Notes: generated by a model from the letters alone, not told the origin. DNA of 64,000 bases from Actinomycetota bacterium (GCA_003132585.1 PKYG01000095.1:21931-85930), one strand, 5' to 3'; counted from the stretch's first letter, positions 26,222-50,228 are shown. Made by a program: numbers and translations.

Positions 26222-28072
26222 TTGAGTCTGGGGGGCCTGTTGGCAGCCACACTCTTCAAGGAAGTCAGCTACACACTCTCCAAGCTCATCGAAGACATCG
26301 ACATGGGCGAGATTGGCCTTCCCGAAATCCAACGGCCGTTCATCTGGAAGAACTCCAAGGTGCGCGATCTCTTCGATTCCATGTACCGAGGCTTCCCCGT
26401 GGGCTACCTTCTGTTCTGGCAGAGCATCGCGAACGGTTACAAGCAGATCGGCCAGGGCGAGAAGCAGAAGTACCCGCGCCTGCTCATCGTCGACGGGCAG
26501 CAGCGTCTCACTTCGTTGTTCGCCGTTCTCAAGTGTGCACCGGTTCTCCGCGATGACTACCGCGCCGAGCGTATCCGCATCGCCTTTCGGCCTAAGGATG
26601 TGACCTTCGAGGTCACCGATGCCGCTATCGAGAAGGACGCCGAGTTTCTGCCAGACATCAGCTCTCTCTGGTCTAAGGAGAGCGGCCGAAAAAAGACAGT
26701 GACCGCGTTCTTCACCCGACTCCGCGAACGTCGCGAGTTGTCGCCCGACGAAGAGGAGCAGCTCGAGGAAGCCATCGACCGCGTTTACGATTTGCAGCAC
26801 TATCCGTTCACAGCTTTGGAGCTCTCGGGCACCGTTGGCGAAGAGGAAGTCGCTGACGTCTTTGTGCGGATCAACAGCAAGGGAATGACGCTCAACCAGG
26901 CGGACTTCATCCTCACGCTGATGTCCGTCTTCTGGGATGAGGGCCGCAAGGAGCTGGAAACCTTCTGCCGCGCGGCTCGAACACCAACCAGTGGCGCGGC
27001 GTCTTCCTTCAACTACTTCATCCAACCGGATCCAGACCAACTCCTTCGTGTGAGCGTCGCACTGGGGTTCCGCAGAGCGCGGCTCCAGTACGTTTATTCG
27101 CTGCTCCGCGGAAAAGATCTGGAGACCGGCGAGTTCTCGGACGACCGACGGGACGAGCAGTTCAAGGTGCTGCAGCAGGCGCAGAGCTACGCACTCAAAT
27201 GTCAGAACTGGCACGAGTTCTTCAAGGCGATCATGACCGCCGGCTACAGGAGCGGCGGCATGGTCTCTTCCGAGATCGGCCTCCTGTACGCCTATGCGCT
27301 CTACCTCATCGGGCTGCGCGATTTCCACGTCGACCACTTCGAGCTGCGGCAGGTCATCGCTCGCTGGTACTTCATGACCGCGGTGACTGGACGTTACAGC
27401 TCAAGTCCAGAGACCACCATGGATCAGGACCTGGCGCGACTGCGCGAAGCACATGGCGCCAGAGGGTTCGTCGAGGCGTTGGACGCCATGATCGCCGAGC
27501 GTTTCACCGAGGATTTCTGGACCCTCAATCTGCCGCGCGACCTGGCCACGTCTGCCTCGCGCGGACCCACACTGTTTGGCTACTACGCCGCTCTGAACCT
27601 AGTTGGGGCCAAGGTCCTGTTCTCACAGATGACGGTGCACGAGCTTCTGGACCCCAGCACCGCAGCGAACAAGGCTGCGCTCGAGCGTCACCATCTCTTT
27701 CCCAAGGGCTATCTCCGCACCATGGGCATCACAGACACGCGCGAGACGAACCAGGTCGCCAACTTCGCCCTGGTCGAGTGGGCCGACAACATCGGTATCT
27801 CAGACACGGCCCCAGTCGACTATTTCTCCGGTTACGCCGGGCGATTCCCCAACGACGAGCTGCGCTCCATGATGTACTGGCATGCGCTCCCGGAGGACTG
27901 GGTCCACATGACATACGCTGACTTTCTGGCGGCCCGCCGTGAGGGCATCGCGCTCGTCATGCGCGACGGCTTCGCGCGCCTGAAAGGCGGTAAGGGCGTC
28001 AATGCCGATTCTGCGCCGACATCGTCCGCTGCACCCTCGGAGCAAGCGGAGACAGCGGCGTTCGAGATCTAA
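26222..28072 (+). CDS. GmrSD-family type IV (modification-dependent) restriction endonuclease-like protein, DUF262 + DUF1524
   Basis: DUF262 motifs EIQRPFIW and [15 protein letters not shown]-terminal DUF1524 His-Me finger region [12 protein letters not shown]...[13 protein letters not shown] start; see finding on the alternative ATG at 26182. Confidence 0.8.
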
Positions 28073-28074
28073 CG

Positions 28075-29721
28075 ATGGCCGCGAAGCAGAGGACGAACAA
28101 CGGCGCCAACGTCGGCTTCGAAGAGAAGCTCTGGGCCGCCGCCGACAAGATGCGGGGCCACCTCGACCCCGCCGAGTACAAGCACGTCGCGCTGGGGCTC
28201 ATCTTCCTCAAGTACATCTCCGACTCGTTTGAAGAGCTGCACAAGAGATTGATCGCCCAGGCGCAGAGCGAGTGGGAACAAGCCGCGCAAGAGGCCGCCG
28301 CGCACGGCCAGGACCCCGACAAGCTCCGCGAATCCTGGTCCGCCGCCACCGACCCGGAAGACCGCGACGAGTACACTGCCGAGAACGTCTTTTGGGTGCC
28401 GCAGCCGGCCCGCTGGAGCTACCTGCAAGACAACGCCAAGCAACCGACCGTCGGCAAGCTCATCGACGACGCCATGGACGCAATCGAGCACGAGAACCCG
28501 GGCCTGCGCGGCGTGCTGCCCAAGCGCTACGCGCGCGAAGACCTCGACAAGCGCCGCCTCGGTGAGCTCATCGATCTGATCGGCAATATCTCGATGGGCG
28601 ACACCGAGTCGAAGTCCAAGGACGTGCTCGGGCGTGTGTACGAGTACTTCCTCGGCCGCTTCGCCAGTGCCGAGGGCAAAGGCGGCGGCGAGTTCTACAC
28701 GGCTCGCTGCGTGGTCAAGCTGCTGGTCGAGATGATCGAGCCCCTGCACGGGCGCGTGTACGACCCCTGTTGCGGCTCGGGCGGCATGTTTGTGCAAAGC
28801 GAACGCTTCGTCGAGGCACACGGCGGCCACAAGGGCGACATCTCGCTCTACGGGCAAGAGAGCAACCCGACCACCTGGCGCCTTGCCAAGATGAACTTGG
28901 CCATCCGCGGGCTCGACGGCGATCTGGGGCCGCAGCCGGCCGACACCTTCCACAACGACGTGCACAACGACCTGAAGGCCGACTTCATCCTCGCCAACCC
29001 GCCCTTCAACGTGAGCGATTGGGGCGGCGGCGCCCTGCGCGACAACGTGCGCTGGAAGTTCGGCGCGCCGCCGGTAGGCAATGCCAACTTCGCCTGGGTT
29101 CAGCACTTCGTCCACCACCTGGCGCCGCAGGGCGTGACCGGCTTCGTGCTCGCCAACGGCTCGATGAGCTCGCAGCAGAGCGGGGAGGGAGAGATCCGCA
29201 AGCAGATCGTCGAGGCCGACCTGGTCGATTGCATGATCGCCCTGCCGGGACAGCTCTTCTACACGACTCAGATCCCCGTGTGCCTGTGGTTCCTGGCGCG
29301 CGACAAGAGCGATGGAGGAGGTGGGAGCGGCGGTCGCGGAAGCGACCGCCGCTCCCAGACCCTCTTCATCGACGCCCGCCAGATGGGCGCCATGGTCGAT
29401 CGCACTCACCGCGAGCTGACCGACGACGACATCGCTCGCATCGCTCGCGCCTACCACGCCTGGCGTGGCGAGGACGGCGCGGGCGACTACGAGGACATCC
29501 CCGGCTTCTGCAAGAGCACCACCACCGAGCAGATCACCGAGCACGGCTACGTGCTCACCCCCGGCCGCTACGTCGGCGCCGCCGACGCCGAAGGCGACGG
29601 CGAGCCCTTCGACGAGAAGATGAAGCGCCTGACGGCGGAGTTGCGCGAACAGTTCGCGGAGTCGGCGAGACTGGAGGAGGAGATCAGGGCGAACCTCGGG
29701 CGCTTGGGCTATGAGCTCTGA
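28075..29721 (+). CDS. hsdM: Type I restriction-modification system DNA methyltransferase subunit
   Basis: N6-adenine MTase motifs, including [14 protein letters not shown] and NPPFN. Confidence 0.9.
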
Positions 29722-30989
29722 GGACTGGCGAACCGCTTCGTTCCGCGACCTGATCGCCAACGGCGTTCTCCTAATCGGCGACGGCTATCGCGCCAAGAAC
29801 AGCGAGCTCGGCGGCGAGGGGCCCATCTTCCTTCGGGCAGGCCATGTCAGAAACACGCACATCGAGTTCGATGCTGCCGACCACTTCGTCGCCGAACTGA
29901 CACCCAAGCTCAAGGCAAAGATGTCGCGTGCCGGCGATGTCGTCGTGACGACGAAAGGCAACAGCACCGGGCGCGTGACCTTCGTCAGCGGCGAGATGCC
30001 GCCGTTCATCTACTCACCGCATCTCAGCTATTGGCGCTCGCTCGACCATCACGCATTGCACCCGGGCTTCCTACGCTACTGGTCTCGCAGTCGCGAGTTC
30101 CGCACTCAGCTAGCTGGCTTCGCCGCTCAGACCGACATGGCTCCCTTCATCAGTCTGCGCGACCAGCAACGCCTTCAGATCACGCTTCCGCCTCCGTCGG
30201 TTCAGCAATCCATCGCGGTGACACTCGGCGCTCTCGACGACAAGATCGAGCTAAATCGCCGCATGAACCGCACCCTCGAGTCGATAGCCCGCGCCATCTT
30301 CAAGTCGTGGTTCGTCGACTTTGATCCAGTGCGGCAGAAGATGGAGGGCGGCGAGCTTCTCAGAATCAAGGTTGGGACCCATCCCGACGGGCTGGGATGT
30401 GGCCGCAATTGGCGATGTCGTCGCAGTCATTGGCGGTTCGACACCAAGCACGAAGGAGCCGGCGTATTGGGGCGGCGAGATCGCCTTTGCGACGCCTCGG
30501 GACATGGCTCAGTTGACAGCTCCCGCTCTGAGGGCGACGGAGCGGCGAGTCACTCCTGAAGGTGCAGCCACCATCAGTTCCGGGCTGCTACCGCCAGGCG
30601 CCGTACTCATGTCATCCAGAGCACCGATAGGCTATCTGGCAATCACCGAGATTCCCGTGTGTGTCAACCAGGGCTTCATCGCGATGCTGGCGGAGTCGGC
30701 GCTACCTGCCCTCTACGTTCTGAACTGGGCGCGTGAGAACATGGAGACCATCGTCGCCAGCGCAAATGGCACTACCTTCCTCGAGATCAGCAAGCGCAGC
30801 TTCCGGCCACTGCTCATCGCGGTACCGCCAGATGAGGTTCTGAACACATTCGTTGACGTTGCGACTTCGCTGCATCGACGCGTCGTCAGCGGTCTCGACG
30901 AGAACGACCTTCTCTGCGCGACGAGAGATCGACTTCTGTCCGCGCTCCTCCGGGGGCATCGGGGGACGCAGGAGCTACCTCATGATTGA
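29711..30989 (+). pseudogene. hsdS: Type I RM specificity subunit, frameshifted around 30355-30375. TRD1 plus the central conserved region are in one frame and TRD2 in the +1 frame.
   Basis: Frame A carries TRD1 and the conserved ...LDDKIELNRRMNRTLESIARAIFKSWFVDFDP. Frame B (ORF 30321-30989) continues with LGPIPTGWDVAAIGDVV... (TRD2). Could be a sequencing error or a functional half-HsdS. Confidence 0.6.
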
Positions 30990-32727
30990 CCCGGTAACCG
31001 CATTGGCCGTCTCGATGAATGCCAGCCCAGGTGTGTATGCGCTGTTACTGGGGTCGGGGGTTTCAAAGGCAGCGGGAATCCCGACGGGTTGGGAAATCGT
31101 CCAGGACTTGACGGGACGCCTCGCTGTCGCCGAGGGCGAAGATGTGGGCGGCGATGCCATCGGGTGGTATGTGTCGCGCTATGAGCGGGAGCCGGACTAC
31201 GACGTTCTGCTCGAGGAACTCGCTCCGCTGCCGTCAGAACGGAATCGGTTGCTCCGCGCGTACTTCGAGCCCTCGGAGGAGGAGCGGGAGCAGGGGCTGA
31301 AGCAACCGACGGAGGCACATCGCGCAGTCGCCGAATTGGTGCGCCGGGGCTACGTCCGAATCGTAATCACCACAAACTTCGACCGTCTCCTTGAGCGCGC
31401 TCTCGATGAAGCTGGCGTGTCGGCCACAGTCGTTTCGTCTGGTGATGATGTCGACGGACTTCTGCCGCTCGACCATTCAAGCTGCACCATTGTCAAAGTC
31501 CACGGCGACTACCTCGACACCCGCATCAAGAACACCGAGCGGGAACTCAGGACCTACGACCCGCGTATCGACTCCCTTCTGGATCGCGTGTTTGACGACT
31601 ACGGTCTGATCGTATGCGGCTGGTCAGCGAAGTACGACAAGGCTTTGCGCGCCGCGATAGCGCGGTGTCCGTCGCGGCGGTTCTCAACGCACTGGGCAGC
31701 GCGTGGGAAGTTGGGAGTGTCTGCTGAGCGCCTTGCGACAGCGCGCGACGGGCACATTGTAGCCATCGAGAGCGCTGATAGCTTCTTCGCAGAGCTCCTG
31801 GAGCGAGTGACAGCCCTGGCCGACGCTGAGGAAGATCCGATGTCTGCCCGAGTCGCCGTAGCCCGGTTGAAGCGCTACCTGCCTGTGCCCGATGCCAGGA
31901 TTCGGCTGCACGACTTGGTCTCCCAGGGCACGGAGGACTTGCGGGGCCGTTTGACGTCGAAGGAGTTCCCTCTGAGTTCGCCCCCTCCGACTCCCGAGGC
32001 CGTTCTCCAACGCATGAAGGCCTTCGATGCCGCATCGGATATCGTGGCCCGTCTGGCCGCGGTCGGGGCATTCCATGGGCGCCCGGAGCAAGAGGAAGTC
32101 TGGGTGCGGATGCTTCAACGGGTGGCGGAGCTTGATGAGGTTGAAGGGCAACGTCTAGTGGTCTGGGACAGCCTCCGCTTGTATCCGGCTCTTGTCTTGA
32201 TGTACGCCGCCGGGATCGCCGCCGTTGCCTCCGGTCACTTCTCGGTGCTTGAGTCGCTGGCGCAGCGGGTGAGGATCGATGATGAAGCGCTAGTCAGGAA
32301 GCTGTACACGTGGTCGGTTCTGGACGATCGCTTGGCGAAGCAGATTCCGGGACTTGAGCGCCGCCACACGCCGGTCAGCGACCACCTGTATGCGGCGCTG
32401 CGCGATGCCATGCGCGACATTCTCCCGTCTGACCAGGAGTACGCTGCCGCATTCGACCGGTTTGAGTACTTGTGGGCGTTGATGCACGTTGATGCAACAC
32501 TCGGGACAGACCACTGGCATGATGGGTGGGGGCCAGTTGGCAGGTTTGGATGGCGCCGCCGCCCGAGTGGCGAGCGTGAGCCTGCAGTTGTTGGGCGCGA
32601 GCTGGAACGACAAGGAGAAGCATGGCCACCGCTCGCCGCGGGTCTGTTCGGCGGTTCGTTGGACAGGCTCAACGAGGTGAAAACCGCTTTCGACGCGTTC
32701 GTGTCGAAGCTCGGCATGGCGTTCTAG
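30982..32727 (+). CDS. SIR2-like (SIR2_2 / DHS-like NAD-binding) domain protein (581 aa) with an uncharacterised helical C-terminal half
   Basis: LLLGSGVSKAAGIPTGWEI...VRIVITTNFDRLLERA...IVKVHGDY...LIVCGWS. ATG overlaps the hsdS stop (ATGATTGA). Confidence 0.7.
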   Translation: MIDPVTALAVSMNASPGVYALLLGSGVSKAAGIPTGWEIVQDLTGRLAVAEGEDVGGDAIGWYVSRYEREPDYDVLLEELAPLPSERNRLLRAYFEPSEEEREQGLKQPTEAHRAVAELVRRGYVRIVITTNFDRLLERALDEAGVSATVVSSGDDVDGLLPLDHSSCTIVKVHGDYLDTRIKNTERELRTYDPRIDSLLDRVFDDYGLIVCGWSAKYDKALRAAIARCPSRRFSTHWAARGKLGVSAERLATARDGHIVAIESADSFFAELLERVTALADAEEDPMSARVAVARLKRYLPVPDARIRLHDLVSQGTEDLRGRLTSKEFPLSSPPPTPEAVLQRMKAFDAASDIVARLAAVGAFHGRPEQEEVWVRMLQRVAELDEVEGQRLVVWDSLRLYPALVLMYAAGIAAVASGHFSVLESLAQRVRIDDEALVRKLYTWSVLDDRLAKQIPGLERRHTPVSDHLYAALRDAMRDILPSDQEYAAAFDRFEYLWALMHVDATLGTDHWHDGWGPVGRFGWRRRPSGEREPAVVGRELERQGEAWPPLAAGLFGGSLDRLNEVKTAFDAFVSKLGMAF

Positions 32728-32740
32728 CGGGAGGCACTAC

Positions 32741-33016
32741 GTGAACGGCAAGACCATCCGCATCTTCCTCGCCGACGGCGAGCCGACCGGTATCCTCCTC
32801 GCCGAGGCCAGCAACTGGACCGGCGAGGTCATCGTCGCGCCGCGCTCGCAGCTCGATCAGCTCAGCAAACGCGAGGAGGTGCGCCGCACCGGCGTCTACC
32901 TGCTCGTCGGTCCCGACTCCGACGATTGCCCGCGGAAGCCGGTCACCATGGATGAGGGTGGGGGACTGCGCAAAAGGCGACTGGCCAATCGCGTCAGGGA
33001 AGGATGCCATGGCTGA
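32741..33016 (+). pseudogene. N-terminal fragment of a GIY-YIG/DUF4357-like gene whose GIY-YIG core is missing
   Basis: MNGKTIRIFLADGEPTGILLAEASNWTGEVIVAPRSQLDQLSKREEVRRTGVYLLVGPDSDD, then out-of-family sequence. A matching downstream fragment (VVIVSKDENLTKSH) lies about 1 kb away, near 33900-33945. Confidence 0.45.
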
Positions 33017-33734
33017 CTTCGACGCGCGCGCACTCGCGCTGAATGAGGAGCTCGAATGCGGCGTGCGGCTTGTGGAGTCGGGACTTCATGCCTGTCGCGA
33101 ACTGGTTCCACCGGGCGACGACTACTACACGCCCCTGTTCCTCCTTTCGAATGGATTCGAGCGGCTGCTCAAGGCGGCTGTCTGCTATGCGCTGTTGGAG
33201 GAGTTCGGTGACTACCCGACCGCAGGCGGTTGGAAGCGCAAGTGGTGGCAGACGCATTCGCTGCAGGCGCTCTTGGCGAATCTGCTTGAGTTGGCGGATA
33301 TGCCCGACGCTCACGGTCGCGCCGTCCTGTCGCGGGTCGATGATGAGGAGGCTGTGCTCTGTCGAATCTGGCGGGTCCTGGAGCAGCAGTCCGTGGCTGA
33401 CGCTGGTCGGTACCACACGCTCAACGTAGTGTTGTCCGCTCGGCGTTTGGTGCACAAGGGGCGGCTTGATCCTGCCTACGAGTGGCAACAGATCGAGACA
33501 GACTTGGCAGGGCGGGTGATTTTGGCGGGGCAGGTGACGCCGGACGAGGTGGGCATGGACCGAGCCTACTCGCTGGCCGCATCCCGCATCGCTGACGAAG
33601 TGGGCTGGTTCGCGTGGAGCATCGCCAGGATGTTCAAGAAGTGGTCTCTGGGCCAGGAAGCGTGGCTGTTCTCGGACGTGGTTCAACCTCTTTTGGCGCA
33701 TGAGCCGCCGAGGCGCCTTCCTTCGTCACAGTAA
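33009..33734 (+). CDS. Hypothetical protein (241 aa) sitting between the two halves of the disrupted DUF4357-like gene
   Basis: GGAAGGA SD before the ATG. Coding-like composition. No motif recognised. Confidence 0.4.
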   Translation: MADFDARALALNEELECGVRLVESGLHACRELVPPGDDYYTPLFLLSNGFERLLKAAVCYALLEEFGDYPTAGGWKRKWWQTHSLQALLANLLELADMPDAHGRAVLSRVDDEEAVLCRIWRVLEQQSVADAGRYHTLNVVLSARRLVHKGRLDPAYEWQQIETDLAGRVILAGQVTPDEVGMDRAYSLAASRIADEVGWFAWSIARMFKKWSLGQEAWLFSDVVQPLLAHEPPRRLPSSQ

Positions 33735-34308
33735 CTGGCGGCGCTGTGGGGCTGATAGTGACTGTAACCGGCGCTTGGATCGGCGGACGACGATACCGAC
33801 TCCGGCGACTCTTGGCGACAGGTGTCTCCATCGGCGAGACCGACACGTCCTCAAGCGCCTGCTCAACAACAACCGCACAGAGGCCAAGGACTTCTGCGAG
33901 CGCACGGTTGTAATCGTCAGCAAGGACGAAAACCTGACCAAGTCACATCCATTCACGGCACGACTGCTGAGCGCCGCGTGTTCGCGGATCTGCGCGATGC
34001 GCTCGTTCCGCGGCTGGTGCCTGGAGACACGGATGCGTTCGATGGAAGACCGGGGAGAATGCGGTCCGGGGAGACTGGCCCGTCTCGGCCCGAGACGGGC
34101 CGCGGGACGATGAGCTAGCTGGCCTCTCGCGGCTCAGGCTTAACGCGAATCGCCGGGACGGTGGTCACTACCGCGATGGTACAAGGCCTCTCGACCGTCA
34201 CCTCTGCCCGGCTCACGCTATGAGAAGGAGAATCGGCCGACCGCTCGATGAGGTGCGGCCCAGCCGGTTTGAAGCTGCTGTGCTCGGCATCTGTCCGGTA
34301 GTTGGGGC

Positions 34309-35475
34309 TCACGTCGCTTCCCCTTCTTGCTTGCCGTGGCTAGCTTTGACGTCCACGTCTTTGCATTGCCATCCTACACCCGTTCTAACCGCCACGACTT
34401 GCAGGTTCATGTCAGGGAGACGCACCGCGTTCAACTTGCCTGTCTGCCTGAACTCGCTGCGGCACCGCGGGCTCTCCACTGTGGCGAGGAAGAGGTCGTA
34501 GTCGATCGCCGTATGCGAGACGACTTGGATCTGCGCCAGGATCTGCTGATGAGCCTGCTGGGCCAAAGCAGGAGGCAGACCAGCGGGAAGGTTCACCTGA
34601 GGCACCGTCGTCAACTGTTGGCTCAGCTCAGAGTCTTTCATGACCTCGATAAGCGGGTCGAACGGCGTGTCCATTTCCATCTCGGCAGCGACGTCGGTCC
34701 ACACCGACCACAATGCGTCGTCTAGCTCCAGATCCTCAGCCTTGATCACGCGTAGCCCTGCCTCTGCCGCCTCGCGGCGACCGACCGGGTAGCCATGGTG
34801 ATAGAAGGCGCTGTTGAAGGACTCGGCGATGGCCTTGGCTTGGTTCTTGTCCTCCATGTGCATGCCAAGCAGTTTCTCGCCCATGGACAGAGCGAGATTG
34901 GTGCCGCGCTTGGCAGAGCCTACGGCGATTGCACCGACGTCGCGTATTGCCAACTCGAAAGCTCGTTCCAGTGGACCTTGGTCTGTGATGCCGACATCTG
35001 CGCGCAGAAACTCGAGGAAGTGGCGGACATCTTCTGAGCCGAACGTAACTTCCTCGATTTCGCCCGTGGGATGGCCGTCAGGCCCCGTGACTCTGCGTCG
35101 CTGGGTTAGTTGCATGTCGACAGGGCCGAGGTTGGCGAACGGATGCATCACGACTTCGTCGGCGCCGAGAGCAAGAAGCGTCGCGGCTGAGAACGCCGAG
35201 AACGGCAGCAGCACGCCGACGCTCGCAAACCGTTCGCGCAGAACACTGACGATGCGCCAGGCGACGGTGGGATCGCCACCGTTGCTCACGATGAGGAGGT
35301 CAATGGCTGAGTGTTCGGGCGCTACGCAACGAACCTGCTCTGCGATGTGCTGGATGACGTCTGACGCCATCTGCGCCTGGGCGTTGGGGCGACTGCTGGT
35401 CACGTAGGCGATGACCGGTCGGTTCCGTTTCGCCTCGATCATCTGGTAGAGGGCATTGCGCTCTGCGAATCCCAT
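34309..35475 (-). CDS. SDH-family ClpP/SppA-fold serine protease-like protein (388 aa)
   Basis: RPVIAYVTSSRPNAQAQMASDV...IDLLIVSNGGDPTVAWRIVSVLRE...VLLPFSAFSAATLLALGADEVVMHPFANLGPVD. The ORF track extends to 35880, but the extension is antisense to a repeat fragment. Confidence 0.65.
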   Translation of the reverse strand: MGFAERNALYQMIEAKRNRPVIAYVTSSRPNAQAQMASDVIQHIAEQVRCVAPEHSAIDLLIVSNGGDPTVAWRIVSVLRERFASVGVLLPFSAFSAATLLALGADEVVMHPFANLGPVDMQLTQRRRVTGPDGHPTGEIEEVTFGSEDVRHFLEFLRADVGITDQGPLERAFELAIRDVGAIAVGSAKRGTNLALSMGEKLLGMHMEDKNQAKAIAESFNSAFYHHGYPVGRREAAEAGLRVIKAEDLELDDALWSVWTDVAAEMEMDTPFDPLIEVMKDSELSQQLTTVPQVNLPAGLPPALAQQAHQQILAQIQVVSHTAIDYDLFLATVESPRCRSEFRQTGKLNAVRLPDMNLQVVAVRTGVGWQCKDVDVKASHGKQEGEAT

Positions 35476-35586
35476 GAGTTCCCCCGGATCGCGTTCGCTT
35501 GAACAAGGGTGCACGACGATAGTACTCGGAGGCGAGTGACGCAAGGGGGCGTCCGGCACAGCGAGGTGACATTCGCGGAGCCGTTG

Positions 35587-35751
35587 ATGAACGGCAAGAC
35601 CATCCGCATCTCCCTCGCCGACGGCGAACCGACCGGCATCCTCCTTGCCGAAATGCCGGCAACCGGACCGATGAGGTCGTCGTCGCGCCGCGCTTGCAGC
35701 TCGATCAAGCTCGCCAGGCGCGAGGAAGTGTGCGCTGAGCGCCAAGTGTAG
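35587..35751 (+). pseudogene. Second, degenerate and frameshifted copy of the DUF4357-like N-terminal segment (MNGKTIRISLADGEPTGILLAE...)
   Basis: Nucleotide similarity to 32741-32900 with indels. Confidence 0.4.
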
Positions 35752-35985
35752 GGAGGAGGAGACCCCGTTAACGGCTGAGGCCGCCCGCAAGCGAACGGCC
35801 TCGTTGCTCTTTCTACACAAGGTAGATGAGCCATGGGCAGTATCGACGGTGACGGGCTGAGAATCAAGTGATCGGCTCAAACGTGACCGACCTTTGGGCC
35901 GATGATCCGTCCACCCGTTCCTTCGTCACCCTCGCCTGATACGATGACGCCGCACCTACGCAGGCGTTCGGGGGGGTAAGGCGTC

Positions 35986-39078
<3,093 letters not shown>

Positions 39079-39311: not shown

Positions 39312-40343
39312 TCAGCGCCCCGTGTGCATGCTGCGCCGCCGTGCGATGCCGGCCATGCGGCCATCGCGGTCGTGGCGCGCTCCGTCGTCACCGTTCGCCT
39401 CGGCGAAGAAGGCGCCGTGCAGCGCGACGTCGTCGACGACCAGCGCCGAGCCGACCACACCGGGGCCGCGGTAACGCACGTCCCAGCCGCGGCCGGGCGA
39501 CTTGTGGGTGCGCCCCGTCAACTCGGCGACTGTACCCATGAAGGCGTTGGCGCGCGTCAGCGCCTCGTCGGCGCTCAGCTTGCGTTTCTTGCCGCCCGCC
39601 GGCGCCCCGGTCTCCGCCGCCGCCGCTTCGAGCGCGTAGCTCTGCAGCAGCTTGCGGTGCACCTGCGCGTACGCAGCCGTGCGCGAGATGAAGTCGACCC
39701 CGGCGACTTCACCGCCGAGCAGCACCAGCAGCCCGTGCTGGCCGTCGATGAGCGGGAAGGCGCCGAGGTACTCGTCGATCTCGTGCTGCCGCTCGACGAA
39801 GGCGTCGCGCATCGCGCCGGTGGGGGAATGGGTGCACTGGCGCATGTGCAACTGGTCGACCTCGTCCCACACGCGACCCTGGTCGCCGCTGTAGCCGGCG
39901 CCGTTGTCGAGACTCATCGCCACGCTCATGTGAAGCGCGCCGCGCACGCGGTGGTCGGCAACGTAGCCCGAGTCGGTAAACGCTGGGCTCACGTCGTGCC
40001 AGCGCCCCTGCTCAGTGCAGCTTACCGGCACGACCAGCTCGGAGTGAGCGCCGACGAGGATCGTCGCGTTGAGCACCCGGTTCTGCTTGGCCCCGGCCAG
40101 CTCTTCGCCGCCGAGGATCAGCGTCGCCAGCGAACCCGAGTTGACGACCATCAGATTGGGGACACTGCCACCCTTGTCGACCTCGGTGACGCGTACCTTG
40201 CCGCGGGCGATGCCCTCGGAGAGCGTGCGATAGTCGGGACCACGGTCACCGAGAAAGCTTAGCGGCACCACGGTCATCGCTTCGAACCTCTGCGGTTTCT
40301 TCGCCTCGAGATAGCGGGCGAAATCGGCTTTGATCTCGGTCAT
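39312..40343 (-). CDS. Hypothetical protein (343 aa)
   Basis: GAGGAGTGA SD 6 nt before the ATG. The ORF track extends to 40526 without SD support. Confidence 0.5.
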   Translation of the reverse strand: MTEIKADFARYLEAKKPQRFEAMTVVPLSFLGDRGPDYRTLSEGIARGKVRVTEVDKGGSVPNLMVVNSGSLATLILGGEELAGAKQNRVLNATILVGAHSELVVPVSCTEQGRWHDVSPAFTDSGYVADHRVRGALHMSVAMSLDNGAGYSGDQGRVWDEVDQLHMRQCTHSPTGAMRDAFVERQHEIDEYLGAFPLIDGQHGLLVLLGGEVAGVDFISRTAAYAQVHRKLLQSYALEAAAAETGAPAGGKKRKLSADEALTRANAFMGTVAELTGRTHKSPGRGWDVRYRGPGVVGSALVVDDVALHGAFFAEANGDDGARHDRDGRMAGIARRRSMHTGR

Positions 40344-40460
40344 GACGATCACTCCTCTCGCGACGGCCAATGCTCTTGCGGCATACTTACCGTCACCATT
40401 GATTAGAGCTGCTATGCCATGATAGCATACCCACGGACGGAAAACGATGCACAAGACTTG

Positions 40461-40528
40461 CCGTTGAGGCATGATGGCCATTGAGGACTCACGGCCCATG
40501 AGGGATAACGGCCGTTGAGGGATCACGG
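40461..40528. repeat. Four tandem 17-bp imperfect direct repeats (CCGTTGAGGCATGATGG / CCATTGAGGACTCACGG / CCCATGAGGGATAACGG / CCGTTGAGGGATCACGG) in the divergent promoter region
   Basis: Seen directly. 17-nt period. Iteron-like, candidate operator array. Confidence 0.5.
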
Positions 40529-40585
40529 CAGACGCGCGAAAGAGCAGGGATGAGCGGAGGAGGAGGCGTGAGCGGAGGAGCGGGC

Positions 40586-42085
40586 ATGTCCGACGACGAC
40601 GCTCACCAGATCGGCCTCGGCCGGCGGGTCGCGACGCTGCGCGAAGCGGCCGGCCTCACCCAGGCCGAGCTCGCTCGACGTTTGCACGTCACCCAGTCGG
40701 CCGTCAGTCGCATCGAGTCCGGCAGCCGGCGTCTGTCGGCCGCCCAGCTCGTGCGGCTGGCGGAGATCCTCGGCATCGAGCCCGGGGTGCTGCTCGCGCT
40801 CGACGAGGCGACTGCACCCGACGATGCGCTCGCAACCGACGACTCGCTCATGCCCGCGCAGTCGGCGCGTCGCCAGGCGTGGGCGTTTGGGCCACCGTCG
40901 GCGCCTCCCCCCAGCTACGCACTCAGGAGTGAGATCTCCCATTTGCCAGCCGAGCCACCGGAGTCATTGCGCCGTCTCGCGCGTGAGCGGCGGCCGCTTC
41001 AGCGCTCGCCGCAGCCCGAACGAGCGCTCGAGTCGCCGCCCCAACCATCGCTCGAGCCGCGGTTCCTGCCATCGCTCGAGCCGCCGCTGTTCGCCGAGGT
41101 CGTGCGCGACTGGTTCGCGGTCGCCGGGGCGGTCGCGGACGCCGGGGCGGTCGCGGACGCCGGGGCCGCTCCCGCGCTTCTGCCCGACCGACCCGGCGTG
41201 GTCGGGCTCGACCCGCATATCTCCGCCGGTGGCGCCGACCCGGTGCGCCTCGCCCGCTTCTGGCGCCACGAGTTCGGCGTCGGCGAGCGCGGTCCCCTGC
41301 CCGATCTCGTCGTGCTGCTCGAGGCGGCCGGCGTGCAGGTGATCGTCGCCCGCCTCGAGGGCGACAAGCCGCACGGCGCCTGCGCGGCGCTGCCGGCAGG
41401 CGCGGCCGGCCCGGCAGGCACCGCAGGTGCGGCAGACGCCGGCGCCCACCGCATCCCGTTCGTCTTCGTCAACAGCTTTGGCCGTCCCGTCGCCCTGCAG
41501 CGCTTCGCCCTGGCGCACGAGTTCGCCCACCTGGCGCTGGGGCACGGCGAAGCCTACGACGAGCTCATCGACTGGTCGGGTCGCAACCGCCGCGAGGTCG
41601 AGGCCAACATGTTCGCCGAGGAGTTCACGGCGCCGCTCGCCGCCGTGCGTCACTGGTTCGAGATGGAGGGTGGCAGCGGCCAGATCGACGACATCGAGTC
41701 GGTCGCGCGGCTGGCGAATCACTTCGGTGTGAGCTTCTGGGTGGCGCGCTATCGCGCCAAGGCGGCCGGCCTGCTCACCAGCCCCACGCGGCTGCGCGAC
41801 ATCGACCGCGAGCTGCGTCGCCGCGAGTTGCAGACATTGCCGCGCCAGCTCTTTCTCGGCGGCCTGCGCGACACGCTCTCCGTGCTCAGCTCCGAGATGC
41901 GCCCGGGTCAGGAGCAGAACCAGTTGCGCATCGCCCCGCAGGGCGTGCGCGTGCCCGGTCCGATGCGCGCCGCTGTGTTGCGCCTCCTCGAGGCCGGTGT
42001 TGCCACCCTCGAGGAGGCGCAAACCTGGCTGCGCATCGGCGCCGACGACCTCCGCTACCAGCTCGCCCAGTTCGGCGTCGAGTAG
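40586..42085 (+). CDS. Fused XRE-family HTH / ImmA-IrrE (M78, DUF955) zinc-metallopeptidase protein
   Basis: HTH LTQAELARRLHVTQSAVSRIE. HEXXH HEFAHLALGH. In-frame 18-nt tandem repeat (AVADAG x2). Alternative ATG at 40550. Confidence 0.75.
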   Translation: MSDDDAHQIGLGRRVATLREAAGLTQAELARRLHVTQSAVSRIESGSRRLSAAQLVRLAEILGIEPGVLLALDEATAPDDALATDDSLMPAQSARRQAWAFGPPSAPPPSYALRSEISHLPAEPPESLRRLARERRPLQRSPQPERALESPPQPSLEPRFLPSLEPPLFAEVVRDWFAVAGAVADAGAVADAGAAPALLPDRPGVVGLDPHISAGGADPVRLARFWRHEFGVGERGPLPDLVVLLEAAGVQVIVARLEGDKPHGACAALPAGAAGPAGTAGAADAGAHRIPFVFVNSFGRPVALQRFALAHEFAHLALGHGEAYDELIDWSGRNRREVEANMFAEEFTAPLAAVRHWFEMEGGSGQIDDIESVARLANHFGVSFWVARYRAKAAGLLTSPTRLRDIDRELRRRELQTLPRQLFLGGLRDTLSVLSSEMRPGQEQNQLRIAPQGVRVPGPMRAAVLRLLEAGVATLEEAQTWLRIGADDLRYQLAQFGVE

Positions 42086-42377
42086 CCGCGCCGGTCAGAC
42101 GACGGCGCCGATCACTTCGCGCACTTCTGTGAGTCAGCGTGCGCGGCCCGCATGGTCATCTTCAGCCTACCGAGCACCGCCGCGTCCCCCGCCCCTCTCA
42201 GGCGGCCGTGGCGAACGTCACCTCGCGCGGCCGATCGTCATCTATCGCCCGGAGAAGGCCGCCCGTAGCATGAGCGCATGATCGAGCTTGCCTCTGTGGT
42301 ATGGTAGCGGTAATCCTCCCCGTCGTCCGGGTTTCGGTCCGCACTGGCGGGGTTTTCTTCTCCCCGGCGGCCTGAGC

Positions 42378-42980
42378 GTGCTGCGGGTGGTCGTCTTCCT
42401 CGACTTCCAGAATGTGTACCATCGCGCCCGAGGCTGCTTCTGCCGCGGCGACGCTCCCCACTGGGAGGGCCAGGTGGACTGCCTCGCTCTGGGGCAGAGA
42501 CTCGTCGCACGCGGTTCCGATGCACGCGAGCTGAAGCAAGTGCGCGCCTATCGGGGCATGCCGTCATCGGCGAGAGACCCCAAGGCTTACGGCGCCAACC
42601 GTCGCCAGTCCGCGCGCCTGGTCAGGCGAGGGCAGGGGAGGGTACAGATCGTTGCCCGACCGCTGCGCTACCCGGCGGCCTACCCGCGCGAGAAGCCCGA
42701 AGAGAAAGGGATCGATGTGGTCCTCGCCGTCGACTTTGTGATGATGGCGGCGCGCGATGAGTATGACGTCGGCATCCTCATGTCCACCGACACCGACCTC
42801 GTTCCCGCACTCGAAGCGGTGTCCGAGTTGCGCGGGCCGAGGTGTGAAGTCGCCGCGTGGAAGAACCCGCGAGGCAGTTCGAGTCGACTTGCGGTGCGCG
42901 GCCATGACGTGCCGTGCCACTGGCTCGAAGCCGCCGACTATGCCGCTGTCTTCGACGACACCGACTACACGGTGCCGTGA
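42378..42980 (+). CDS. NYN-domain (LabA-like) putative ribonuclease
   Basis: RVVVFLDFQNVY...EKGIDVVLAVDFVMMA...YDVGILMSTDTDLVPALE. Start uncertain (the ORF is open from 42288). Confidence 0.65.
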   Translation: MLRVVVFLDFQNVYHRARGCFCRGDAPHWEGQVDCLALGQRLVARGSDARELKQVRAYRGMPSSARDPKAYGANRRQSARLVRRGQGRVQIVARPLRYPAAYPREKPEEKGIDVVLAVDFVMMAARDEYDVGILMSTDTDLVPALEAVSELRGPRCEVAAWKNPRGSSSRLAVRGHDVPCHWLEAADYAAVFDDTDYTVP

Positions 42981-49479: not shown

Positions 49480-49625
49480 CCCGCCGGACTGATTGTCATC
49501 TTTCTCCGGCCGCAGCCGGCTTCTAGCACCGACTCATGTATCCGCGGAGGGGTGGGAGACATGTGGAATGTTGCATAACGTCGGCCAATATTGACAAAGA
49601 CCGACGTTATGTAACAATTAGCTCC

Positions 49626-50228
49626 ATGAGTCGTTCATCTCACAGCGAAGTACTCGAACTGGTCCGTAGCCGCGGGGTGGTCCGACCGCGCGATCTCGAG
49701 GCTGCCGGCTTCTCGCGCATGTGGCTTACGCGACTGACCCGTCAGGGGCTCGTCCGGCGGGTCGGTCGCGGCCTCTACGAGGCCACCGATGCCGACTGGA
49801 CCTCCCACCACGCGTACGCCGAGATTACCAAGCGCGTGCCCAATGGCATCATGTGTCTGCTGTCGGCCCTGGTGTTCCACGAGCTCACCACGCAACTTCC
49901 GTTCGAGGTCTGGCTCGCGATCGACAAGAAAGCGCGTGCGCCTCGTGGGCTGACCGTGTCGACGCGTCTCATGCGGTTCTCGGGGCCGGCGCTGACCGAG
50001 GGTGTCGAGGAGCACGTCATCGACGGTGTCACCGTGCGCATCACCTCGCCGGCTCGGACCGTGGTCGACTGCTTCCGCTATCGCAACAAGGTTGGGCTCG
50101 ATGTGGCGATCGAAGCGCTTCGCGACTGCTATCGCCTCAAACTCGCGACCATCGACGACCTCTGGAACTGCGCTGTTCGTCTGCGGGCGACCAACGTCAT
50201 GCGCCCATACCTCGAGTCCCTTCTGTGA
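49626..50228 (+). CDS. AbiEi-family antitoxin / transcriptional regulator (type IV TA system)
   Basis: SEVLELVRSRGVVRPRDLEAAGFSR...SLL. AbiEi N-terminal wHTH plus C-terminal domain. Confidence 0.75.
   Translation: MSRSSHSEVLELVRSRGVVRPRDLEAAGFSRMWLTRLTRQGLVRRVGRGLYEATDADWTSHHAYAEITKRVPNGIMCLLSALVFHELTTQLPFEVWLAIDKKARAPRGLTVSTRLMRFSGPALTEGVEEHVIDGVTVRITSPARTVVDCFRYRNKVGLDVAIEALRDCYRLKLATIDDLWNCAVRLRATNVMRPYLESLL

Follow-up and report, generated by a model that had tools for sequence, protein, structure and literature searches.

In DSR1 and DSR2, a SIR2 NADase at the N-terminus is joined to a helical region at the C-terminus of the same polypeptide, and in DSR2 this helical region senses the phage tail tube. 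The SIR2-APAZ protein of SPARSA follows the same NADase effector logic, and in the EcoprrI Type I restriction-modification (RM) system an effector gene, prrC, is located inside the RM operon itself. Here, we analysed a 64-kb stretch of DNA from an Actinomycetota bacterium (PKYG01000095.1:21931-85930; referred to as the window), in which a gene for a SIR2 protein likewise lies within a Type I RM operon. The layout of the locus was derived from a map of open reading frames (ORFs) together with Pfam and PADLOC scans. ORF map and Pfam placed hsdM-hsdS (28075–30989) and hsdR (35986–39078) 5 kb apart, as an initial annotation of this DNA had stated, and the gap between them holds several unrelated candidate genes. 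These are the SIR2 gene, an orphan gene of 241 amino acids (aa) termed ORF241, fragments of DUF4357 genes and, on the opposite strand, an SDH-type ClpP-fold serine protease gene with a small ORF. The gap is likely a cassette hotspot carrying independent passengers rather than one system. The locus thereby illustrates a "guilt by embedding": at least three unrelated candidate defence cassettes share one RM gap with probable recombination scars.

Distribution of the SIR2 gene and the SDH protease gene

All proteins of the window were compared by tblastn with 80 genome loci that carry SIR2 relatives, from many bacterial phyla and several archaea, and 102 loci of the SDH family (about 90 distinct) were examined in the same way for SIR2 homologues. 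The 80 SIR2 loci yielded no match to the SDH protease, to ORF241 or to the N-terminal part of DUF4357, and no SIR2 homologue was detected in the 102 SDH loci. The initial annotation had proposed that the SIR2 protein and the ClpP-fold protease may constitute a new two-component defence module, in which, for example, the protease would activate or process the NADase. The two genes share one RM gap and are only 1.6 kb apart, in the window as well as in four sister assemblies, which is consistent with such a module. However, both genes are on opposite strands, with another gene and dead DUF4357 pieces between them. The nearest relatives of the SDH protease (loci L085, L095 and L098) occur without SIR2, those of the SIR2 protein (L194–L197) occur without SDH, and co-occurrence was absent in either direction. 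At the sampling depth used, the two-component module is refuted, and we assign it a negligible probability.

The second possibility considered in the initial annotation, independent passengers in a known RM-embedded hotspot, is in good agreement with these data. The SIR2 protein belongs to the catalogued family PDC-S65 (see below), and SDH, the 241-aa gene and DUF4357 each turn up in further RM gaps, unaccompanied by the others. Of the 80 SIR2 loci, 15 (~19%) carried Type I RM genes. When the ORFs up to 5 kb away from the SIR2 gene were all clustered at these loci, hsdS (13 loci), hsdR (9) and hsdM (9) emerged as the sole recurrent neighbours, the next-largest cluster comprising four loci. A hidden partner gene was not found among the clustered ORFs, and the SIR2 gene is, as defined for PDC-S65, a single gene without an obligatory partner.

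The SIR2 protein and its C-terminal half

The start codon of the SIR2 gene is an ATG within ATGATTGA, which overlaps the stop codon of hsdS; both the coordinates of the 581-aa SIR2_2 gene and this overlap agree with the initial annotation. The protein matched the PADLOC profile PDC-S65 (PDLC05061) over its full length (E = 7.9e-209, residues 1–576 against profile positions 12–588 of 592). The PDC set comprises predicted systems that were defined by embedding in Type I RM operons (Payne et al., bioRxiv 10.1101/2024.01.29.577857). The SIR2 protein is a member of this already catalogued candidate family, and nothing sets the copy in the window apart. With more than 4000 homologues in bacteria and archaea, which are typically ~585 aa in length, 46–50% identical and conserved from end to end, the family is among the larger candidate families. 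The motifs LLGSGVS, TTNFDRL and HGDYLD as well as a C-terminal FDRFEY motif are invariant. Literature searches on PDC-S65 returned essentially nothing, and the supplements of Payne et al. also yielded nothing.

Residues 1–290 of the protein adopt a defence-type SIR2 NADase fold with intact Asn, Asp and His motifs, and residues 290–581 form an alpha-helical module. In the AlphaFold model (predicted local distance difference test, pLDDT, 84.7), the first ~290 residues superpose on defence sirtuins, and Foldseek matched the model to SPARSA Sir2-APAZ, ThsA, KomC and DSR2. Taking structure and sequence together, the nearest relatives are the defence NADases ThsA, KomC, SPARSA Sir2, DSR2 and Avs5. 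These relationships bear on the question whether the protein might be a housekeeping NAD-dependent deacylase that resides in an RM neighbourhood incidentally. Weak NCBIfam matches of the CobB type do occur over ~35 residues, but they reach 25 bits against a cutoff of 320, and the best relatives are the defence NADases just named. In addition, the C-terminal module is common to proteins with TIR and SEFIR heads, and the SIR2 gene is repeatedly embedded in RM operons. A housekeeping role is therefore very improbable.

The nearest solved relative is SPARSA SIR2-APAZ (PDB 8jkz, 8in8 and 8y80; profile E = 1e-17 for residues 21–292; Foldseek 5e-9). The TTNFDRL and HGDYLD motifs align, and the total length of ~580 aa is similar. 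In contrast to SPARSA, the window protein has no APAZ: the Aga_SIR2-PNTD1-PNTD2 models match residues 84–241 only, and the alignment stops at residue 292. The window contains no prokaryotic Argonaute (pAgo) gene, and a conserved neighbour gene was not found at the 80 related loci. In its architecture, an N-terminal SIR2 NADase joined to a helical C-terminal region in a single polypeptide, the window protein resembles DSR1 and DSR2, which offer the closest analogy to the way it probably works. It is, however, only half as long, and the SIR2 domain alone aligns structurally. The DSR2 chains gave target-normalised TM-scores of 0.20–0.23 against the SIR2 model, and the sequence profile matched DSR2 at residues 128–215 only. 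Assignment to DSR1/DSR2, which calls for a protein of ~1000 aa, was rejected, with an NCBIfam Dsr1 score of 14.6 bits against a cutoff of 1400. The same applies to Thoeris ThsA: the PADLOC ThsA models match residues 107–177 only, at ~1e-5, and there was no SLOG/STALD domain (Pfam), no TIR/ThsB gene in the window region examined and no recurrent partner in the 80 loci. SIR2-HerA (Nezha) was likewise dismissed, with no HerA ORF between 26 and 41 kb of the window and no recurrent partner in related loci. According to the initial annotation, its proposal would be refuted if the SIR2 protein turned out to be a variant of DSR or ThsA; the protein is neither, yet its family had already been catalogued as PDC-S65.

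The position of the gene suggests a further comparison, to PrrC. In this view, the SIR2 protein would guard the Type I RM enzyme in the manner of PrrC: HsdMSR would keep it inactive until anti-restriction proteins of a phage set it free. PrrC itself provides the precedent for an RM-embedded effector. The SIR2 start overlaps the hsdS stop both in the window and in 79%-identical relatives, in which the SIR2 gene is located directly 3' of hsdS with overlapping codons and is followed by DUF4357, and in seven or more unrelated taxa the SIR2 gene separates hsdM/S from hsdR. PrrC, however, has another fold and another target. Furthermore, most SIR2 homologues are not RM-linked, ~81% of the 80 homologous loci having no detectable RM gene within 10 kb; the SIR2 protein comes with a large C-terminal module of its own that is also used by other heads; and hsdS is broken in this allele. 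We therefore consider a PrrC-like guard unlikely. The order hsdS, SIR2, DUF4357 is kept in close SIR2 relatives. At locus L198 (1678–4897), a 72–79%-identical SIR2 gene 3' of hsdS is interrupted by an insertion sequence element of the Transposase_mut type, with a small-ORF remnant further downstream and without an SDH gene.

The initial annotation had described the C-terminal half as an unrecognised helical region of ~300 aa. It is indeed helical, but it is covered by the PDC-S65 profile and is shared with many other proteins. A search with residues 290–581 against 1.84 billion cluster representatives (E up to 1e-3) returned 2379 matching proteins, and the match was always at the C-terminus. 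Among the top 150 matches, 23 carry N-termini other than SIR2, namely TIR_2, SEFIR, TIR-like of the CAP12/Pycsar type, PilZ, Ser/Thr kinase of the PD-T4-6 type or nucleoside-deoxyribosyltransferase-like. Most of these alternative heads match PADLOC models of known defence effectors (ThsB-type TIR, bSEFIR and PD-T4-6 kinase). Judged by these sequence matches, the ~290-aa C-terminal half is a portable module. It may well be a sensor or regulatory domain, because one module is joined to interchangeable heads, most of which are of defence-effector types. This reuse with TIR, SEFIR and kinase heads offers a handle for finding the trigger. That the module is shared with the validated bSEFIR system was considered and rejected, as in the SEFIR-headed relatives the PADLOC bSEFIR model covers no more than the N-terminal SEFIR part. 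A published account of this modular half was not found, though no literature search was aimed at it. One helical hairpin of the module (YPALLLLYAAGIAAxAAGxY; window 32182–32270, residues ~401–429) is very hydrophobic and highly conserved; it is modelled with high confidence inside the helical bundle.

Based on these properties, the SIR2 gene would encode a stand-alone, single-polypeptide candidate defence protein that is translationally coupled to hsdS. Its C-terminal half would sense a phage cue and release the SIR2 head, which would then hydrolyse NAD+ and thereby abort the infection.

The SDH protease forms a conserved two-gene unit with a small downstream ORF

An SDH-family protease with a ClpP fold had been assigned to the opposite strand of the gap in the initial annotation. 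Gene, strand and fold were confirmed; the reported end at 35880 was not, since it corresponds to the maximal ORF, and the true start at MGFAERN was set according to the MGFAERN-type N-termini of the homologues. The Pfam PF01972 match scored 60.8 (gathering threshold 31.3) over profile positions 84–161 only, and the score against NCBIfam NF047768 (Clp_like_SDH) was 65 bits compared to an equivalog cutoff of 250. The window protein represents a divergent subfamily, 370–390 aa in length, that has an additional beta domain at the C-terminus. In the family alignment, Ser96 and His111 do not vary, and in the AlphaFold2 model (pLDDT 79.5) the N-terminal ~250 residues have a ClpP/SppA/1510-N fold according to Foldseek.

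At nearly every SDH locus, a small ORF on the same strand begins within a few bases of the protease stop codon, often with an overlap of 4 nucleotides (nt), as is the case in the window, where the small protein has 65 aa and carries the N-terminal motif ...KPAGPHLIERSADS. A GP[FYH] motif occurred within the first 60 aa in 55 of 74 unique small ORFs, compared to 3.8% of control ORFs. The ratio of nonsynonymous to synonymous substitution rates (dN/dS) of the small ORF was 0.14–0.44 against close relatives, and RefSeq annotates the equivalent small gene in a Chlorohelix plasmid. Thus, the SDH protease and the small downstream ORF are a conserved two-gene unit, which is separate from SIR2. At six distinct SDH loci (L128, L130, L131, L146, L175 and L177), the small protein is encoded directly upstream of PemK/MazF, i.e., in the position of an antitoxin. 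These MazF-linked proteins have 99–120 aa and end in ...MLASEAVLxxDWxxPEDDxAWADL, with PemK/MazF following ~30 nt downstream; L130 and L131 share an identical peptide, so that the six loci represent five different sequences. A Fic/DOC gene follows at eleven SDH loci.

Type I RM genes are located next to SDH at nine loci (L095, L098, L111, L112, L115, L117, L123, L126 and L149), and one homologue lies within an island of integrase, terminase, Fic and GmrSD genes. An alternative reading is that the protease is a leftover from a prophage, or a capsid-maturation protease, instead of a defence gene. The protein has weak PHROG and NCBIfam matches to ClpP-related head maturation proteases (1e-5 to 1e-7), some homologues occur on IMG/VR contigs, and an E. 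coli homologue resides within lambdoid prophages. Yet the top PHROG match is a family of unknown function, a search of 50,697 GenBank phage records gave 0 matches, and there are no capsid or portal genes adjacent to the protease gene in the window. The E. coli gene is a moron outside the head module, and the protease family keeps its own small partner ORF in neighbourhoods of RM, toxin-antitoxin, Fic and GmrSD genes. A phage structural origin is accordingly quite improbable.

PADLOC v2 contains no model for this SDH protease. DefenseFinder lists a system named FS_HP_SDH_sah, of which the name only was confirmed. The system is said to originate from work of Fillol-Salom and colleagues that appeared in Cell in 2022. 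Compared by description only, it resembles the unit in the window in that a protease of the SDH/PF01972 family is paired with a small protein, likewise uncharacterised, and that the setting is mobile or defence-related. The window protease differs in belonging to the 370–390-aa subfamily with the extra C-terminal beta domain and in falling far below the NCBIfam SDH equivalog cutoff. Searches of the literature on SDH_sah and on anti-phage proteins of the SDH family returned essentially nothing, and the Tai system (PMC11364771) was discarded as the SDH system, as no protease is mentioned in the paper.

Within the two-gene unit, the GP[FYH] motif might be a recognition or cleavage site of the SDH protease, and protease and peptide would then act as a protease-gated, toxin-antitoxin-like switch. 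The motif and the antitoxin-like position of the small protein raise the question whether the protease cleaves the peptide, for a pair that is absent from PADLOC v2. What is new at this locus is the modular C-terminal domain and the pairing of protease and peptide; the SIR2 family itself had already been catalogued. Two more far-reaching readings concern these two elements: the C-terminal half would be an undescribed, very widespread sensor family, and SDH with its GP[FYH] peptide a new protease-gated switch. With regard to the first, one sensor module may drive SIR2, TIR, SEFIR, TIR-like, Ser/Thr kinase and PilZ heads as single-protein immune sensors. With regard to the second, the ClpP-fold protease may cleave its cognate peptide, in some lineages a MazF antitoxin, leading to abortive infection. 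We regard these readings as tentative and rather doubtful.

Several points weigh against the interpretation of the locus given here. PDC-S65, like the whole PDC set, consists of predictions only, and about 80% of the SIR2 homologues are not adjacent to RM genes. The frameshift in hsdS (see below) may alter expression of the coupled SIR2 gene in this allele. The proposed sensor role is drawn from domain swapping alone, PilZ heads are not classical effectors, and the C-terminal half had no specific structural match in the PDB. Finally, the small peptide of the window has no adjacent toxin, and the toxin-antitoxin-like model may not hold here.

Two side observations concern SDH relatives elsewhere. 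At locus L095 (1244–2855), an SDH gene with 84% identity lies ~1.6 kb 3' of hsdM-hsdS in the opposite orientation, and SIR2 is absent. In E. coli (L188, 3998–5165, and L199, 6001–7168), a moron of lambdoid prophages encodes an "SDH family Clp fold serine proteinase" with 28% identity. It lies between the genes for the Q antiterminator and the holin and is present in 47 of 5426 complete genomes; the stop codon of the protease gene is overlapped by an unannotated ORF of 59 aa.

Gap history and the Type I RM operon

The coordinates of all features are summarized in Table 1. The 241-aa gene, the 65-aa gene that overlaps the SDH stop and the frameshift in hsdS had been missed in the initial annotation.

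Table 1. Features in and around the hsdS-hsdR gap (positions refer to the window)
Feature	Position	Strand	Evidence and remarks
GmrSD_N/DUF262-type gene	26222-28072	+	616-aa ORF; Pfam GmrSD_N 1e-31; PADLOC HEC-05 2e-34
hsdM, Type I methyltransferase	28075-29721	+	Pfam N6_Mtase 3e-102 and HsdM_N
hsdS	29711-30989	+	broken across two frames; both ORFs match Methylase_S
SIR2_2 protein, stand-alone, 581 aa	30982-32727	+	PADLOC PDC-S65 family
DUF4357/PDC-S14 fragment A1	32741-32958	+	~aa 1-72 of a ~304-aa gene; PADLOC PDC-S14 1e-26
ORF241, orphan gene, 241 aa	33009-33734	+	putative third passenger
DUF4357/PDC-S14 fragment A2	33796-33948	+	~aa 58-109; 82-86% nt identity to L085 and L191
Small gene, 65 aa	34115-34312	-	start overlaps SDH stop by 4 nt; N-terminal motif (see text)
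SDH-type ClpP-fold serine protease, 388 aa	34309-35475	-	Pfam PF01972 1.4e-16; family alignment
Divergent intergenic region, SDH gene to fragment B	35476-35587	.	conserved with L085
DUF4357/PDC-S14 fragment B	35588-35733	+	aa 1-48; PADLOC PDC-S14 1e-5
hsdR, Type I restriction subunit, 1030 aa	35986-39078	+	Pfam HSDR_N, SWI2_SNF2 and T1RH-like_C; PADLOC REase_I
ARPP-1 protein	39312-40526	-	wider island
HTH (helix-turn-helix) and Peptidase_M78 regulator	40550-42085		resembles PADLOC RmrA/CapH-CapP
NYN nuclease	42288-42980		HEC-09-like match
AbiEi gene	49536-50228		wider island

The remnants of a GIY-YIG/DUF4357-like gene that had been noted in the gap could be located as three PDC-S14 fragments; an intact PDC-S14 gene of ~300 aa is not present, and no further DUF4357 copy was found in the 64-kb window. 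Fragment A1 covers PDC-S14 profile positions 21–87 of 320 only, has 89–91% nt identity to the 5' ends of the intact genes in L085 and L191, and continues as a chimeric ORF of 91 aa to position 33016. Copy A is interrupted by the ORF241 segment, and the gene is truncated after codon ~109. Fragment B, which retains 48 codons beside the SDH promoter region, is a direct repeat of A1 (repeat families D1 and D2, 89–94% identity, spacing 2846 nt). No integrase is adjacent to the window fragments. The pieces would be scars of repeated cassette exchange, with recombination at the conserved 5' end of the gene. Such 5' fragments of DUF4357/PDC-S14 at cassette boundaries were also observed in L099 and L189 (3873–4178, 8563–8734 and 12172–12744).

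ORF241 lies within a segment of ~840 nt (32959–33795) bordered by a short duplicated stretch of DUF4357, and would be a third independent passenger. Its family comprises ~20 homologues with an invariant LLSNGFERLLK motif. Searches of Pfam, PADLOC, PHROGs and the PDB gave no match, and NCBIfam only a chance match far below threshold. In the RM gap of L191 (order hsdS, ORF250, DUF4357, AbiEi, AbiEii, hsdR), a homologue separates hsdS from DUF4357, and another follows GmrSD in a Gabija/GmrSD/AbiE island (L189).

The segment from 34213 to 35733 has 75% nt identity to L085, and a divergent arrangement of SDH and DUF4357 with a spacing of 112–116 nt occurs in L085, L096, L098 and L099; in L098, SDH (on the opposite strand) and DUF4357 are followed by hsdR. 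A conserved divergent pair of SDH and DUF4357 was nevertheless rejected: the adjacency is restricted to these four SDH relatives, which are at least 77% identical, more distant SDH loci are without it, and DUF4357 occurs without SDH in L191 and L194.

With respect to the RM operon, hsdM and hsdR are intact in the window, whereas hsdS is frameshifted relative to the sister assemblies, so the Type I RM set is not fully intact. The frameshift is due to a deletion of 41 nt between GGCGAG direct repeats near 30349–30355 in the central conserved region, which leaves the two target recognition domains, TRD1 and TRD2, in separate frames. The deletion is common to the window and L082, while an intact hsdS of 439 aa is present in L081, L083 and L084, which are assemblies of the same organism. 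The deletion appears to be a polymorphism at the population level that leaves the specificity subunit inactive or halved. The nearest relative of the operon is L191, with 90% nt identity in hsdM and 83% in hsdR. Among non-coding features, neither an Rfam family nor promoter-like sites were detected, and terminator-like sites were not above chance. The flanking GmrSD-like gene, itself of a defence type, ends 2 nt ahead of hsdM, and the RM locus sits in a broader defence-type island that includes the regions 39312–42980 and 49536–50228 of the window.

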